This document shows, in pieces, positions 42,001 through 51,000 of a stretch of 64,000 bases of DNA. The number at the start of each line of letters is the position of its first letter. Within the stretch, counting starts at the first letter, position 1. Source of the stretch: Escherichia coli (GTDB taxonomy: Bacteria; Pseudomonadota; Gammaproteobacteria; Enterobacterales; Enterobacteriaceae); the NCBI RefSeq assembly GCF_041886205.1, contig NZ_CP169029.1. One strand, written 5' to 3'. Made by a program: the position numbers.

Positions 42001-45000
42001 GTCATGCTGGGAGCGGTGGAACGCCGCTTCGGCAACGAGCTTCCGGCGTCTCCAGTAGAGTGGCTGACGGATAATGGTTCATGCTACCGGGCTAATGAAA
42101 CACGGCAGTTTGCCCGGATGTTGGGGCTTGAACCGAAGAGCACGGCGGTGCGGAGTCCGGAGAGTAACGGCATAGCAGAGAGCTTCGTGAAAACGATAAA
42201 GCGTGACTACATCAGTGTCATGCCCAAACCAGACGGGTTAACGGCAGCAAAGAACCTTGCAGAGGCGTTCGAGCATTATAACGAATGGCATCCGCATAGT
42301 GCACTGGGTTATCGCTCGCCACGGGAATATCTACGGCAGCAAGCCAGTAATGGGTTAAGTGATAACAGGTGTCTGGAAATATAGGGGCAAATCCAGCTTT
42401 ATCGTCCGTGTGCTGGTGTTATATATGAGGGAAGCAGAGTTGTCGCCGGACCCAGTTCTGGTGTGCAGTGCTGCATTGTCGTAATGTCCGTGATTGATAA
42501 TCATGCTTCTTGTATAACGACAATGAGATGTCCGGGCTCAAATCATAATGTGGTCAGGGCGTCATCGCGAAAATTCGGTTATCATAAATACCTTTCGTTT
42601 TTTCCAGGGCTTTACAGGCAGACCAGTTGAAAAGCACCGTAATATCGAAAAGTAATAACTCTGGAGACATAAAAAAGCCGGCGAAAAACGCCGGCAATGA
42701 TCATAAACAAAAATAGGCTAATCCCTATGTGCCTTATCATTTTCCCACCATTTCATACAGAATTTCAAGCTGATATACAGAAAAAATAACATTGACTGGC
42801 GAAGCTGTGATAGAACTTAGAATGTATCAGAAAGAAATATTTTGTATGACAAAATGATGTGGCAGATATTAAGGTCGTACCAGCAGTAATTTCCTGTGCG
42901 GTCCGTACAGGAAGGAGTGTCATATATTCTTATTATGTGAATTAGCTCAATTATTAGAGAGATGTCTGTTATATATAATTTATCACAACACGGTGTATCC
43001 TGTATTGTATCAGGGCTAAGTGGCAGTTTGTACATAACCTGCAAAGGATTTGCTAAAGGCACCTCAAGGCGGACCATGGTTTGCCACACCAGTGGTCTAT
43101 CGGTAAAAATCCGACACCGTGTTGTTTTTTCTCTGTACTTTTATCTATAAATCACGAGTTGATGGTGTTTTTTTGCTTCATGAAGGAGGGCTGTGAGGTG
43201 TTTTAACTTTTCTTCGTGAAGTCAAATAGAGATATATAATTTATTCATGTGATAGAATTATGTTTACTGTTAACGGGTTATATTTTGATCCACTTGATCA
43301 AGAAAGGGTTATTGGATGGGGAGTGTATCGTAAATCCCCATGGGACCTTGTTGGTGTTTATCCGACAGAATATATAGCCAGGGAAAAAGCGGTATCATAT
43401 GGCTGCGATTATTTAGTATCACTGGGCCCTTATCGTATTGGCTCACATGATTTCAGACCATTCATGTCATATATATAAATCTGCGTCCTGATATTATCAA
43501 ATATTCCAAGTATAAATACACTCTGATTCAGTGATGACATTGTATATATTATGCATTGCCATGATATATGGATTACTCCTGACGGGTTATCTCCGGACAG
43601 CTGGTGTATCTGAATCTGGAGTGTAAAATACAGTAAATATGTGATTTAAACTCTGTAAAAAAATCCTGCCATACAGATGTATGGCAGGTAAGTGTCAGTT
43701 ACGCTGTAAATAAACATAATATCAGGTACAGCACACCTGATTTACGTCTGCGAAAAAAATTATGTATAGAAATGGAGGAATATAAAGGATTTGTTGTTGA
43801 TTTTATGTATTATGTCACAAAACTATGTATATTGTTGATAAATAATCAGGCTATGTTGAAGGTGCGTATTTTCATGAAAGGAGATCACTCAATACTCACC
43901 GATCTCCTTCACGGTAATACGCACTGACTCCGGTAATCCCCGTATTTCATCCTCGATGGCGTACTGTTCACTGATTCGCTTCAGGGCTTCTTCTGCCGTC
44001 TATACATCGTGGATTTTTCGCCGGGCATGGGCCCAGCACGCAACTTCTGTCAGTGCACCACCTTCACGTTCTGCACTGAACAACCTGTCGTAACCTGTGA
44101 ACGCATCCGCCTGCAGGATACCCCGGAAGGGGCGGAGGTGTTGCTCCGGGTATTTCCCCTGACGGTTCGGCGAGTACGCGAACCAGACCGCTGGAGGAGA
44201 TGACGAACCCACATTGCGATCATCCCGGACATACGTCCAGATACGCCCTGTTTTCGCCTTTTTCTGACCCGGTGCCAGTACCTTTACCGGTGTGTCATCA
44301 GTGTGAACCTTGCGGGTGTTCATTACATAACGGTACAGGGCATCATTCACCGGTGTCATTAACTGGCAGCACGCGTCAACCCAGTTGGAGAGTAAGGCCC
44401 GGCTCAGTTCGACACCCTGGCGGGCAAAGATTTCACTCTGACGATACAGTGGCAGATGTTCGCAGTATTTTCCCGTTAACACGCGGGCAAGTAATCCGGA
44501 GCCCGCGATACCACGCTCTATCGGGCGGGACGGCGCCGGTGCTTCAACAATACAGTCACATTTTGTACAGGCTTTTTTTACCCGTTCTGTGCGGATCACT
44601 TTCAGGGCACTGCTCACCAGTTCCAGCTGTTCAGCGCTGACTTCCCCCAGATAATCCAGCTCACCGCCACACTCCGGGCAACAGCTTTCTTCTGGCTCCA
44701 GGCGGTGTATTTCACGGGGAAGGTGTGCCGGTAACGGACGACGATGGCGCGACTGTCGCAACTGGCGGGGAACCTGAGGATCGTCTTCCCGCCCACTGTA
44801 ACGATCGCTGTCCTGTTCACGTTGTTTCAGCAGGGCCTCAGCCAGTTCAACTTCACGACGCAGTTTTTCAGAACGGGTACCGAACAGCATCCGGCGCAGT
44901 TTTTCTATCTGAGCCCGCAGATGTTCTATTTCCCGTTCATCTTCTTCGATCTTTTCTTCGGCACGTGTCAGTGCAGAGCGCAGGAAGGCTTCCGTCTCTT

Positions 45001-48000: not shown

Positions 48001-51000
48001 TCGGCTCTGACCATGGTGGTGAGCGGGGAGCGCTACTGTACAGCCTGATCGGGACGTGCAAACTGAATGACGTGGATCCAGAAAGCTACCTTCGCCATGT
48101 GCTTGGCGTCATAGCAGACTGGCCGGTCAACCGGGTCAGCGAACTGCTTCCGTGGCGCATAGCACTGCCAGCTGAATAACACATCCCCGTCAATACGGCC
48201 CTCGCTGTACGCTTACGAGTAAGATTTCTTAAAAAATATAACAATAACAAAAAATTGAAATATATCACAAAAAAATCAATATACCCCTTATAAGGCCTGG
48301 ATGACTGTACAGCATGTATATGCCAGAAAACCGGTTTATGTGAATCAGGGTTTACCCGTCACCAGTTGTGTCCTTAATACCATACTGTTTTAACCACTGA
48401 CAGGGAGTGACTGAGTAGTATTTTCTGAAACTTAAAATAAAATACGACAGACTGCTATATCCGCACTCTCTAGCGACAATAAAAATGTTAGCATTCCCGC
48501 ACTTCATCAGAGTTATTGCCTTTTTCATACGTACTTCTGTGATTATCCGGCTGAATCCTGCGCCTTCACTGTGCAGTTTTCTTTTAAGCTGACTGGCACT
48601 TATACATAACGCTGATGCAACATCTGACAGATACCATTTCTTTGCCGGCTCTGCGGCAACAATAGCTTCAACACGTAACGAGTAGTTATTCAGCCCACCG
48701 GACAATACAGGCAGCAACTGGTTTTTATCATTAAGATAATCCAGCAGCACAAATAATACTGACTCATAAAGGTTAGTATTTTTCTGTTGTTCCACAAGTG
48801 ACATCAGCGAGTTCAGAAAGGTACCATACGCTTTCTTTCTGAAAAAAGAATTTTTCCTGTCAGTGATGCATAACGCATCGGCATCCCTCAGTCTGATATA
48901 CAGATAGTCGCTGATGATATGACAGGGTATATCAATAAACCTCACACATCCTTCACAGGCATCCGTAATATACTGAATGTCATTTCTTTTAAGAAAGAGA
49001 ATTTCATTCCGGGCAAAATCAAGCTCTTCATTGTAAAATGAAGCACAGAATGGCCTCACTATAATGGCAAAACAATACGGAAACATACAGTACAGGTGTT
49101 ATTTAGAAATATCCGGTATTTTTCTTATTATAGCTGACAGACTTACTTCCTGACATTATATTAAGAAGTTCGATTTTATTATTAAAGTAACCGGACAAAA
49201 TACAGTCCGGTCACCGTGGTTATACGCGCATATAAATGTTATCAGTCACCTTCATTCAGGCTGACAGTATCCGTAATCACACCATCTTCTGCACCTTTCA
49301 GTGCAAGATTGGCTTCGTAGTATTTCCCTTCGCTCATTAATTTTTGCGCACTGTTAACCTTTTTCTGCGTCTGTTTTAATGGCATCAGCCACTGCGTTTC
49401 TGAAATATCAATTCCGGCGAGATGCAGTACGTCAATTGCTCCTTTTTTGTCACCTTTATCCAGTTTTTTATTGGCCTCATCAATAGCTTTCTGTTTTTCC
49501 GGGGTGACAGTAAAGTCTTCAGACAACATTAAGCTGCTGTTAATAATAATGTAGACATCGCCTTCCTGTGGTGTTTTTTTATCCTTGCGGACAACTGTTT
49601 CCCATGTTTTATCATCAGATTTAAGCAAATCTTCAGCCCGGTTTATCAGCTTATCTGCTGCTCCTGTGTCACCACTGAATAAGGCAAGACGTGCATACTG
49701 CATGTCATCCATAATTTCCATACCACGCTGTTCTGCCTTCAGACTCCTTTCTGATAAAACTGTCTGAGCCTCATTTTTTGTGGATGAAGTGTTTTCTGAA
49801 GTTGCTGAGGCCATTGCGACAGCAGAGGTCAGGGACAGAGCGATTGCTACAGCATTAAAGATATGTTTCATATTTTTTACTCCGACATCAGGCAGAAAGA
49901 ATCATACCTGATAATAAACATAATATGATTTTCCCCCTGACGATTAGTCATATACTCAGGAAGCCGGACAAGGATGTCCCCCTCCCGGACATTTATATTC
50001 CCCTATCCGGCATGCATATTTTATGTTCTGCAACTGATATAAGAAATCTGACCACTTACCCCCACACAAAAAATAAATACCGAACCGGTAATATCACAAT
50101 ACATCATTATAAAATTATATTTATGTTACCAGTAATTTTTATGCCATCACAAGCCCAAAAAATCATTAATAACCCACCCCGCTCCATGCAAATAAAAGAA
50201 AATACATTTCACATGAAATACCATGATATATATATTGCCCGGAGTGATGGTGTTTTTATGAAGCAATTTAAATAATACAGATAACTGTAATTTATCATTC
50301 AGACGAAGAGATTTGATTTACACGGTAAGAGCATATGGCACATTACAACAGGGGTCTCTGTGAATATATACAGAAAACATATCTCATAAAACCCGGGAAA
50401 TGCCCCATGAATACAGGACAGTGAAAACAGGCATGATAATCAGGAAAGCCATGCCTGATACAGAAAAAGTTACCTGCGGGGATAATGCATGCGTATTTTC
50501 ATGGAAGGAGATCACTCAATAACTTCCATCGAGAGCGGGTAATAACTCACCGATCTCCTTCACGGTAATAAGCAATGCACAACCAGGCACTTACTGGCCG
50601 GTTATCCATGTCTATATTATATTTACATCACGTCAGTTTTCATAAAGGCTGTGAACAGCCAGTAAATCAGGCCACTGAATACCAGCCACAGCACAACTAG
50701 GGCTGCAACCCTCACAGGGATATCACACTCTTCCGGCACTTTTTCCACAGCCATACTGCACAGATGGACTGTCATAACAGAAATCATCACAACAGCAAGG
50801 ATATGAATGAAAAGAAAAACGACTTTCATTTTCCGGAAATGCATATACAAACCCTGACTCAGCCTGTCCTGTCTTTCCTGATCCTCTGTAATCTTAACTT
50901 ATCCATGCGCTGACGAAGTCTGCCCGGAACACGCCCGCTCTTTCTTGAAATATGAGCACAGATAAAATCTTCAAGCAGAAAATGCATGTCCTGCATTACC

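Follow-up and report, generated by a model that had tools for sequence, protein, structure and literature searches.

Three defective IS66-family elements around the F17 fimbrial operon: a probable insertion sequence graveyard in an Escherichia coli genomic island

The presence of three incomplete IS66-family insertion sequences in a ruminant-type island of Escherichia coli, where they surround the F17 fimbrial operon, two of them facing each other and one carrying an in-frame duplication in its transposase gene, raises the question of which events produced this arrangement. The region lies within a stretch of DNA of 64,000 nucleotides, hereafter the window, in which the three relics were found to correspond to ISEc23 (copy 1), ISEc8 (copy 2) and a chimeric element (copy 3). 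Taken as a whole, the region is probably best explained as a pile-up, or graveyard, of defective IS66-family copies in an IS-rich genomic island, whose remains would now serve mainly as portable homology. The elements and mechanisms involved are already known. Near-identity was judged against the elements named ISEc8 and ISEc23 by PGAP in pO145-13516, to which copies 2 and 1, respectively, are about 99.4% identical. The features of the region are collected in Table 1.

Table 1. Coordinates of the IS66-family relics and adjoining features in the window.
Feature	Position	Strand	Description
ISEc12 (IS21 family) remnant	43863-43922	plus	~32 nt of left end joined to ~30 nt of right end
Copy 1, ISEc23	43923-45988	minus	Left inverted repeat (IRL), tnpA and tnpB intact; tnpC defective; 434 nt at right inverted repeat (IRR) end missing
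Copy 1 tnpC remnant	43923-45100	minus	366 codons, then TAG at 44000-44002, then truncation
Copy 1 tnpB	45131-45481	minus	116 aa, intact; Pfam TnpB_IS66, E = 1.1e-36
Copy 1 tnpA	45478-45903	minus	141 aa, intact; Pfam HTH_Tnp_1, E = 5.4e-12
Junction of copies 1 and 2	45961-45996		ISEc23 IRL tip ends at 45988; ISEc8 nt 251 begins at 45989 (ACAACAAT, 45989-45996)
Copy 2, ISEc8 nt 251-2442	45989-48216	plus	No IRL, no tnpA 5' end; aligned to complete 2442-bp ISEc8 (L004)
Hybrid ORF	45957-46211	plus	84 codons; starts in ISEc23 left end, runs into C-terminal 74 codons of ISEc8 tnpA
Copy 2 tnpB	46208-46558	plus	116 aa; Pfam TnpB_IS66, E = 2.9e-37
Copy 2 tnpC	46608-48179	plus	523 aa; all IS66 TnpC domains plus 11-aa duplication
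Perfect 33-bp tandem duplication	47382-47447	plus	11-aa unit twice, in frame
Copy 2 IRR	48195-48216	plus	...gctgtacgcttac; paired with 57019-57042 as inverted repeat I8
DNA between copies 2 and 3	48217-57020	minus	AraC-type regulator, YfdX, small ORFs, F17 operon (f17A, chaperone, usher, f17G); names as given by PGAP in the ZYB39 segment, which is 99.98% identical
Copy 3, whole	57021-58443	plus	Chimera: ISEc8 nt 1-775 joined to a tnpC 5' end from an unnamed IS66 element
Copy 3, ISEc8-derived part	57021-57795	plus	IRL, tnpA, most of tnpB; ISEc8 nt 1-775, 98.2%
Copy 3, second part	57796-58443	plus	tnpB 3' and tnpC 5' ends of unnamed IS66-family element; 99.8% to strain 135 element (L015)
8-bp tandem duplication	58032-58047	plus	TTGATAAG twice; frameshifts copy 3 tnpC
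Direct repeat, copies 2/3	45989-46516 and 57271-57795	plus	528 bp vs 525 bp (3-nt tnpB insertion); families D1, D5

Copies 1 and 2 occupy opposite strands, and the head-to-head orientation given in the initial annotation was confirmed. Copy 1 displays the IS66 gene order tnpA-tnpB-tnpC, with a 4-nt overlap between tnpA and tnpB, a tnpC start at 45100 and Pfam LZ, zf and DDE_Tnp_IS66 matches. It aligns to positions 435-2530 of the ISEc23 of pO145-13516 (IS66 family, E. coli, 2530 bp, numbered from the IRR end), matching 2096 of the 2530 positions at 99.4% identity, an 18-nt indel excepted (12 SNPs in ~2078 nt). Left inverted repeat (IR), tnpA and tnpB are the same in both, whereas copy 1 carries an in-frame 18-nt deletion with a stop, lacks 434 nt that include the right IR and has an ISEc12 remnant at the cut. 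It is a defective member of the family, retaining the left IR (GTAAGCG...) at 45988 and an incomplete DDE transposase, in which DDE_Tnp_IS66 covers profile positions 1-163 of 284. The 3' truncation of its tnpC reported earlier is real; the frameshift reported with it is not, since the TAG arises from the 18-nt deletion relative to the ISEc23 of pO145-13516 and the same frame goes on downstream, PGAP likewise recording an 'internal stop; missing C-terminus'. Nor does recombination between IS66 copies account for the truncation, as an end of ISEc12, from the IS21 family, sits at the cut: the right tip of the remnant (...aatacgca) abuts ISEc23 tnpC at the point where copy 1 is cut off. The two halves of the remnant match separately, in unrelated contexts, sequences just outside istA/istB of ISEc12 copies in other genomes, whereas the window holds ~60 nt of joined termini with neither istA nor istB; this terminal unit was found in 1779 genomes, at a median of four places per genome. 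ISEc23 probably lost its transposase through the in-frame 18-nt deletion that created the stop, and an ISEc12 insertion would then have cut the element, leaving 60 nt of ISEc12 termini behind.

Copy 2 shares tnpB, tnpC and the right IR with ISEc8 (IS66 family, E. coli, 2442 bp), and its ~99.4% identity to the ISEc8 of pO145-13516 holds apart from indels. It differs from ISEc8 in lacking the first 250 nt, with the left IR and tnpA codons 1-52, and in having 33 extra bp in tnpC and a 3-nt in-frame insertion in tnpB (an extra Gln at 46484-46486, missing from copy 3 and L010); both of these genes have open reading frames. Because its left end and native upstream region are absent, this remnant would be unable to transpose as a unit. 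The hybrid ORF that crosses its left boundary has no Pfam match, no sigma-70-like promoter was found in 45700-46700, and the ORF is probably non-functional.

The origin of the boundary between copies 1 and 2 is central to the history of the region. As the initial annotation had claimed, the IR of copy 1 ends at 45988, where homology to copy 2 tnpA begins: up to that position the plus strand has ...cagtttacgcttac, which in reverse complement is the IS66-type terminus GTAAGCGTAAACTG, and a 300-nt stretch 100% identical to copy 3 tnpA begins exactly at 45989. The 60-nt junction is present as a single matching piece in eight complete genomes. The counterpart half of ISEc8, nt 1-258 ending in ACAACAAT, abuts different IS66-family IRs on nine plasmids, and the half in the window (from nt 251) and the plasmid halves (to nt 258) overlap by exactly 8 bp, the length of the target site duplication (TSD) in this family. 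Position 45988/45989 looks like a transposition breakpoint. The most likely origin, in which we have moderate confidence, would be a direct insertion of ISEc23 into ISEc8 tnpA at nt 251-258, with ACAACAAT as the 8-bp target, whose other half is no longer present at the locus. Comparable insertions occur in relatives: pO145-13516 harbours a cleanly nested ISEc23 at ISEc8 nt 16-23 (TSD GAACCGTC), the chromosome of SCPM-O-B-7615 harbours another inside an ISEc8/ISEc22-like tnpA at nt 221-228 (TSD CATTAACG), and a 2708-bp IS66 element lies inside the left end of ISEc23 (TSD GTCTATAT). The first two nests, like the window, consist of a head-to-head pair with ISEc23 within the first 260 nt of an ISEc8-type element; in both, the two elements are complete with an 8-bp TSD, whereas the window has its junction at nt 251, with one side left. 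Against direct insertion, the ISEc8 left halves on plasmids adjoin IS66 elements other than ISEc23. The predicted reciprocal junction, in which ISEc8 up to nt 258 meets the ISEc23 right IR (...GGCGACAACAAT/GTAAGCGTCAACGG), was found in none of 5426 complete genomes and 72,556 plasmids.

The term nested, applied earlier to this pair, is too strong for its present state: the IR tip of copy 1 stands against an internal tnpA position of copy 2, and the two elements, both truncated, abut. A nested insertion would show the target element on both sides together with a TSD, but to the left of copy 1 lie the ISEc12 remnant and non-IS DNA, with no ISEc8. An 8-bp TSD is readable at none of the copies in the window because one end has been lost from each, while the same elements in relatives are bounded by GAACCGTC, CATTAACG, AATAAACA, GTCTATAT and GATAAAAC.

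Alternatively, the junction might derive from a nest of the pO145 type, with ISEc23 at ISEc8 nt 16-23, through a subsequent IS-mediated loss of nt 24-250 starting from the ISEc23 IRL tip. This scenario, which we consider unlikely although credible, draws on pO145-13516 and the O145:H28 chromosomes, where the same two elements lie head-to-head with a 235-bp gap at the junction in comparison with the window, and on L004, where the same truncated ISEc23 tip abuts cobU-proximal DNA. The DNA beside a precisely retained tip is therefore variable, as is classically seen after IS-mediated adjacent deletion. However, an overlap of exactly 8 bp with the ISEc8 nt 1-258 fragments, which were observed separately, would be unlikely for an arbitrary endpoint, the truncated ISEc23 is devoid of its own transposase and of a second end, and the additional step is needless given that direct insertion of ISEc23 is demonstrated at several sites of this region.

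The breakpoint at ISEc8 nt 251-258 (ACAACAAT) recurs: ISEc23, ISEc8 itself and a 2708-bp relative, at least three different members of the family, have used it. Together with a possible preference for AAC-containing 8-mers (six of the seven target duplications seen), this might suggest that IS66-family elements insert preferentially within ~260 nt of the start of other elements of the family, a reading that we regard as rather improbable. The sample is small and biased by the way in which junctions were searched, and the pattern was noticed post hoc. If true, such a preference would point to a rule of target selection or self-targeting, as yet undescribed, in a transposase family that is poorly understood.

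The in-frame 33-bp tandem duplication described in copy 2 tnpC was recovered by Tandem Repeats Finder (47380-47447, period 33, 2.1 copies, 100% match, score 136) and in the 523-aa ORF. Codon 259 starts at 47382, and the 11-aa unit forms residues 259-269 and 270-280 of a protein that has 512 aa in ordinary ISEc8; 509 of the 512 residues of the pO145-13516 ISEc8 TnpC are identical, the 11 aa being additional. Pfam recognizes LZ_Tnp_IS66, zf-IS66, DDE_Tnp_IS66 (in two stretches) and DDE_Tnp_IS66_C. Whether the duplication is unique had been left as a check: it is absent from ordinary ISEc8 and from the 94 homologues in a 95-sequence alignment (A1). Within the DDE catalytic domain it falls in the beta1-beta2 region, 12 residues past Asp247, which is invariant in that alignment, as are the CwAH residues C341 and H344, with D322 and E449 at least 90% conserved. 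An AlphaFold2 model (pLDDT 91), which speaks to the fold and not to stability or catalysis, predicts that the transposase fold is kept, the second repeat copy forming strand 272-282 and the first lying in an extruded loop (pLDDT ~61-80); the best solved-structure matches are the DDE transposases ISCth4, P element transposase and Hermes. Replication slippage would be the simplest source of the three small changes in these relics, namely the 33 bp in copy 2 tnpC, which are flanked by AT microhomology, the 3 nt in copy 2 tnpB and the 8 bp in copy 3 tnpC. The 33-bp duplication would represent a neutral lineage marker, vertically inherited at one locus in an element that is no longer mobile.

A functional role for the 11-aa insertion, that is, an altered or domesticated TnpC whose larger beta-hairpin would change DNA or target binding and which would be selected for action in trans on other ISEc8 copies, could be argued from the ORF being intact in all 17 contigs with its catalytic residues, from the fold kept in the model and from the tolerance of homologues to some length variation around the loop. 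It is nonetheless very improbable: purifying selection cannot be read from carriers that differ so little, the promoter-proximal region of the element is gone and no sigma-70-like site was found in the interval searched, the ISEc8 newly inserted in one carrier strain (L008) encodes the wild-type 512-aa TnpC, and a second copy of the duplicated allele is absent from the 5426 complete genomes.

Copy 3 had been placed at 57011-58440; the intact tnpA and the 5' part of tnpC reported there were confirmed, tnpB is intact as well, and the true limits are 57021-58443. At 58443/58444 it runs into a hemagglutinin-repeat pseudogene to which it is fused, and the 8-bp duplication in its tnpC is absent in strain C11 (L014). 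Contrary to the initial annotation, copies 2 and 3 are not complementary, as ISEc8 nt 251-2442 and nt 1-775 overlap by 525 bp and the 5' tnpC of copy 3 belongs to another IS66 element; because that overlap takes the form of direct repeats, they are not reciprocal halves. The proposal that copy 2 (3' parts) and copy 3 (5' parts) come from a single element, divided by one inversion or deletion between IS66 copies, does fit the left IR and tnpA 5' end that copy 3 supplies and copy 2 is missing, as well as the pairing of the right IR of copy 2 with the left IR of copy 3. It is hardly tenable, as no common breakpoint exists, the two copies share the plus strand, copy 3 gives way to another IS66 element at ~57795 and was separately truncated in the hemagglutinin-repeat gene, and the left breakpoint of copy 2 is the ISEc23 tip.

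The broader claim that IS66 copies have rearranged the island holds with respect to recombination, although no single break or inversion yielded copies 2 and 3 as its reciprocal products. Strain JML285 carries the exact deletion product across the copy 2/copy 3 direct repeat and has lost F17; the 525-bp repeat that brackets the operon would mediate such deletions. At L006, a different ISEc23 tnpC allele is joined at ~44633-44769, with 48 SNPs confined to 43918-44769 versus 2 SNPs in the next 7.2 kb, and recombination within ISEc23 would swap the left flank. CE0011b-type genomes have the 18-nt deletion and the truncation but not the duplication, whereas L006 has the duplication but not the 18-nt deletion; the distribution of these characters is not tree-like, which counts against the history proposed here and requires recombination, or reversion of the duplication. 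As in IS-flanked, composite-transposon-like virulence modules, the F17 operon lies between two direct ISEc8-type copies; unlike in these, the outer ends are gone, the F17 unit cannot transpose, and its documented activity is homologous deletion only (JML285). A composite transposon formed by copy 2, F17 and copy 3 was ruled out, as the outer left (ISEc8 left IR) and outer right (copy 3 right IR) ends are absent.

Finally, an artefactual origin of the duplication or the junctions, through faulty assembly of repeated DNA, is vanishingly improbable. IS-rich regions are commonly misassembled, but a sequencing read is longer than the 66-nt repeat, the junction occurs in eight complete genomes and the identical protein on 17 contigs, and the window and ZYB39 represent different strains; many independent assemblies exclude the misassembly that would have undermined the initial annotation. 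The 17 contigs encoding the exact 523-aa TnpC come from at least eight assemblies (eight sample accessions listed), always with the gene between ISEc23 and the AraC/YfdX/F17 genes, and two further complete chromosomes encode the identical protein. Among 5426 complete genomes, one has the duplication junction itself, as a single copy, and the duplication was presumably inherited at a single locus. ISEc8 is also inserted elsewhere in related strains, with TSDs AATAAACA (L004) and GATAAAAC (L008), and both of these copies encode the wild-type TnpC.

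The structures that the initial annotation had described as nested IS66-family copies were present essentially where it had placed them, and signature domains of the IS66 family (Pfam) were recovered in all three copies, whose elements were named by comparison with records carrying NCBI PGAP annotation. Copy 1 differs from ISEc23 of plasmid pO145-13516 by 12 SNPs over ~2.08 kb and corresponds to positions 435-2530 of the 2530-bp element, counted from the right inverted-repeat end. Copy 2 carries a 3-nt insertion in tnpB; its TnpC, compared with the pO145-13516 protein, has three substitutions and 11 extra residues. 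The right inverted repeat of copy 2 pairs with the left inverted repeat that starts copy 3 (57021). Copy 3 ends within a hemagglutinin-repeat pseudogene. Its tnpC frame is shifted by an 8-bp tandem duplication (TTGATAAG twice) which, among the genomes listed, is shared by copies with 99.5-100% identity to the window and missing from those at 97.4-97.6% (C10, C11 and ZYB62); as its length equals that of an IS66-family target duplication, it could represent a footprint instead of slippage. The 5' fragment of this tnpC also forms an in-frame fusion with a CdiA-like gene of the hemagglutinin-repeat type; the resulting open reading frame of 1179 codons stops at an inserted 1337-bp IS with 35-nt inverted repeats, the ends of which resemble IS186. 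RefSeq already annotates the genes, the duplicated TnpC being WP_137455365.1; the annotation of the three IS relics is corrected here.

Coordinates of the IS66-family copies and associated features in the window
Feature	Position	Strand	Description
Inverted-repeat arms	40970-41005; 43658-43693		36 nt, 89% complementary
ISEc12 remnant (mini-ISEc12)	43863-43922		~60 nt, left and right termini joined
Copy 1	43923-45988	minus	ISEc23
Copy 2	45989-48216	plus	ISEc8 nt 251-2442 of 2442-bp element
Copy 2 tnpC ORF	46608-48179	plus	523 aa
Tandem repeat in copy 2 tnpC	47380-47447		period 33, 2.1 copies, 100% match
In-frame repeat units	47382-47414; 47415-47447		residues 259-269; 270-280
Copy 2 right inverted repeat	48195-48216
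Second mini-ISEc12	50490-50577		24-nt spacer
Copy 3	57021-58443	plus	chimera
Copy 3, first part	57021-57795		ISEc8 nt 1-775 (98.2%)
Copy 3, second part	57796-58443		99.8% identity to unnamed IS66-family element near sitA or uhpC in other strains
8-bp tandem duplication	58032-58047		copy 3 tnpC
tnpC-hemagglutinin ORF	58057-61596		1179 codons
1337-bp IS	61555-62891
35-nt inverted repeats of this IS	61542-61576; 62870-62904

The tnpC of copy 1, which had been read as frameshifted, instead carries an in-frame 18-nt deletion that converts TAC...GCG to TAG at 44000-44002, the same frame continuing to the truncation point. There, copy 1 meets the right tip of an ISEc12 (IS21-family) element, of which a short remnant persists; the two halves of this remnant match separately, next to the istA and istB genes of ISEc12 copies in numerous unrelated settings. 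A likeness of the left flank of copy 1 to ISEc23 (13/17 nt, 43906-43922) was considered as the trace of a microhomology deletion and rejected, the stretch being the ISEc12 right tip. Such a 'mini-ISEc12', made of ~32 nt of left end and ~30 nt of right end, occurs twice in the window. Many genomes, ST131 chromosomes among them, contain the same 65-nt unit, which may be either a MITE-like derivative or the scar of a deletion that recurs. An inverted repeat with arms 2.65 kb apart, each hairpin-like with a T-run at its end, encloses the DNA on the left side of copy 1 together with an IS2 remnant.

The junction between copies 1 and 2 proved to be as initially annotated: on the plus strand, copy 1 closes with ...cagtttacgcttac, an IS66-type terminus in reverse complement, and tnpA homology starts at 45989, with 300 nt 100% identical to 57271-57570. 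In relatives, clean insertions of one IS66-family element into another, bounded by 8-bp target-site duplications (TSDs), were found for ISEc23 in ISEc8 nt 16-23 (GAACCGTC, pO145-13516), in an ISEc8/ISEc22-like tnpA at nt 221-228 (CATTAACG, SCPM-O-B-7615) and at ~nt 77-84 of ISEc8 on an IncFII plasmid, as well as for a 2708-bp IS66 element within the ISEc23 left end in CE0011b (GTCTATAT). The ISEc8 half in the window begins at nt 251, and in nine conjugative plasmids, most of them recorded as coming from cattle, sheep, yak or raw milk, ISEc8 runs only to nt 258, where the inverted repeat of a different IS66-family element follows. The two halves overlap by exactly ACAACAAT, 8 bp, the TSD length of the family, which argues for a transpositional break at nt 251-258 and not an arbitrary deletion endpoint. 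Because of this exact overlap, the junction would probably have arisen by direct insertion of ISEc23 at ISEc8 nt 251-258. Derivation from a pO145-like ancestor by adjacent deletion, for which an 8-bp overlap between halves is unexpected, appears a rather unlikely origin, although it would fit two observations. The reciprocal junction GGCGACAACAATGTAAGCGTCAACGG, in which ISEc8 nt 258 would meet the right inverted repeat of ISEc23, had no full match among plasmids or complete E. coli genomes, and in CFIAFB20190172 the same truncated ISEc23 tip lies against cobU-proximal DNA. A local inversion is excluded, since neither the missing ISEc23 3' end nor the remainder of copy 3 tnpC was found in the window by BLAST; a search with five reference IS66 elements detected no further IS66 fragments in the whole window.

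ISEc8 nt 251-258 (45989-45996 in the window, and loci L022 and L023) recurs as a breakpoint facing inverted repeats from three different IS66-family elements. Of the seven IS66 target duplications observed, six contain AAC, a post hoc pattern in a small sample biased by junction-anchored searches. Repeated insertion at nt 251-258 and more broadly in IS66 left ends, together with the AAC-containing 8-mers, may reflect target preference or self-targeting. Were the hot spot real, it would provide a first hint of target selection in the IS66 family, of which no description is known; literature searches on ISEc8/ISEc23, IS66 TnpC and DDE, and the IS66 target site returned nothing relevant.

Copies 2 and 3 had been regarded as complementary, which they are not: they have 525 bp in common, in the same orientation. 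In JML285 the order is truncated ISEc23, ISEc8 tnpA remnant, copy 3-type tnpB and hemagglutinin pseudogene, and the window aligns with it over 40000-46516 and 57271-59145. As both stretches contain the common 525-bp segment, JML285 corresponds exactly to the product of homologous deletion between the two copies and lacks ISEc8 tnpC and the entire F17 fimbrial operon, which documents F17 loss by homologous deletion between bracketing IS66 copies. Locus L006, which carries the duplication, has a different ISEc23 tnpC allele, with 48 SNPs and the undeleted 18 nt all in 43918-44769 and only two SNPs over the next 7.2 kb, and an IS110-family insertion in place of the ISEc12 cut; this points to an exchange inside ISEc23. 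In CE0011b-type genomes the 18-nt deletion and the truncation are present and the duplication is absent. Given these conflicting combinations, the distribution of characters is not tree-like and calls for recombination, or for the tandem duplication to have reverted.

The 33-bp in-frame tandem duplication reported in copy 2 tnpC was confirmed by Tandem Repeats Finder and encodes an 11-aa unit twice. The unit has AT on both flanks (AT...AT), which is consistent with an origin by replication slippage. In an alignment of 95 diverse TnpC homologues from 48,722 representative clusters (E-value up to 0.001), D247 is invariant, as are C341 and H344 of the CwAH motif, and conservation of D322 and E449 is at least 90%. 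The duplication starts 12 residues past D247; no comparable repeat occurs at this position among the aligned homologues, whose loop length differs by a few residues. An AlphaFold2 model of the duplicated protein (mean pLDDT 91.2) places D247 on strand 243-254 and the first repeat copy within loop 255-271, with pLDDT down to ~61-80, the native strand 272-282 being formed by the second copy. Sequence searches against solved structures gave no match; at the fold level the best matches were the DDE transposases ISCth4 (IS256 family), P element transposase and Hermes. On this basis the fold is predicted to survive; activity of the duplicated TnpC, if it exists, would mean that IS66 transposases can accommodate 11 additional residues in their beta1-beta2 hairpin.

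Misassembly had been named as what might refute these features. The 45988/45989 junction was found as a single uninterrupted match in eight complete genomes (JML285, CE0011b, CE0026f, ZYB39, strain 11, 33F4, 32F4 and 33E), six from cattle or a cattle farm and JML285 from a human, and the exact 523-aa protein on 17 contigs of at least eight assemblies, so an assembly artefact is excluded. Among 5426 complete RefSeq genomes, only a single one has the duplication junction, and there it is present just once. In all eight distinct places returned, the protein lies between ISEc23 tnpA/tnpB and an AraC-type gene, yfdX and F17, with no sign among them that the duplicated ISEc8 has moved; one carrier (CP184825.1) has a fresh ISEc8 in yfdX (TSD GATAAAAC) with an ordinary 512-aa TnpC. 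The duplication is thus a usable lineage marker for the F17 island, which occupies differing chromosomal sites in mostly ruminant-associated E. coli.

The window is 99.98% identical to the bovine E. coli ZYB39 over 42647-61554. Identity with that strain was rejected on IS content, upstream divergence and flanks: the window lacks the ZYB39 IS100 insertion and has the 1337-bp IS that ZYB39 lacks, identity upstream of 42647 is only 98.1%, and the IS66-F17-hemagglutinin module adjoins the glc operon in the window and cadC in ZYB39. The island repeatedly receives ISs: sites left vacant in the window (42647-42656 and 43712-43719 among those noted) are filled in relatives, by IS100 in ZYB39, by ISEc8 at AATAAACA in CFIAFB20190172, by the 2708-bp IS66 element in CE0011b and by ISEc8 in yfdX in CP184825.1. 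All these features are of known kinds: IS66-family elements that already have names, insertion of one IS into another, truncation of an IS by a different one, short tandem duplications, and loss of a virulence operon through IS-mediated homologous deletion. Their significance is mainly bookkeeping. Scans for promoters and terminators in 45700-46700, for Rfam families and tRNAs in 43000-59000, and for tRNA genes in the window found none; Rfam matches elsewhere in the window were C0719 sRNA (9525-9746), IS102 RNA (31629-31865) and STnc490 (40159-40282).
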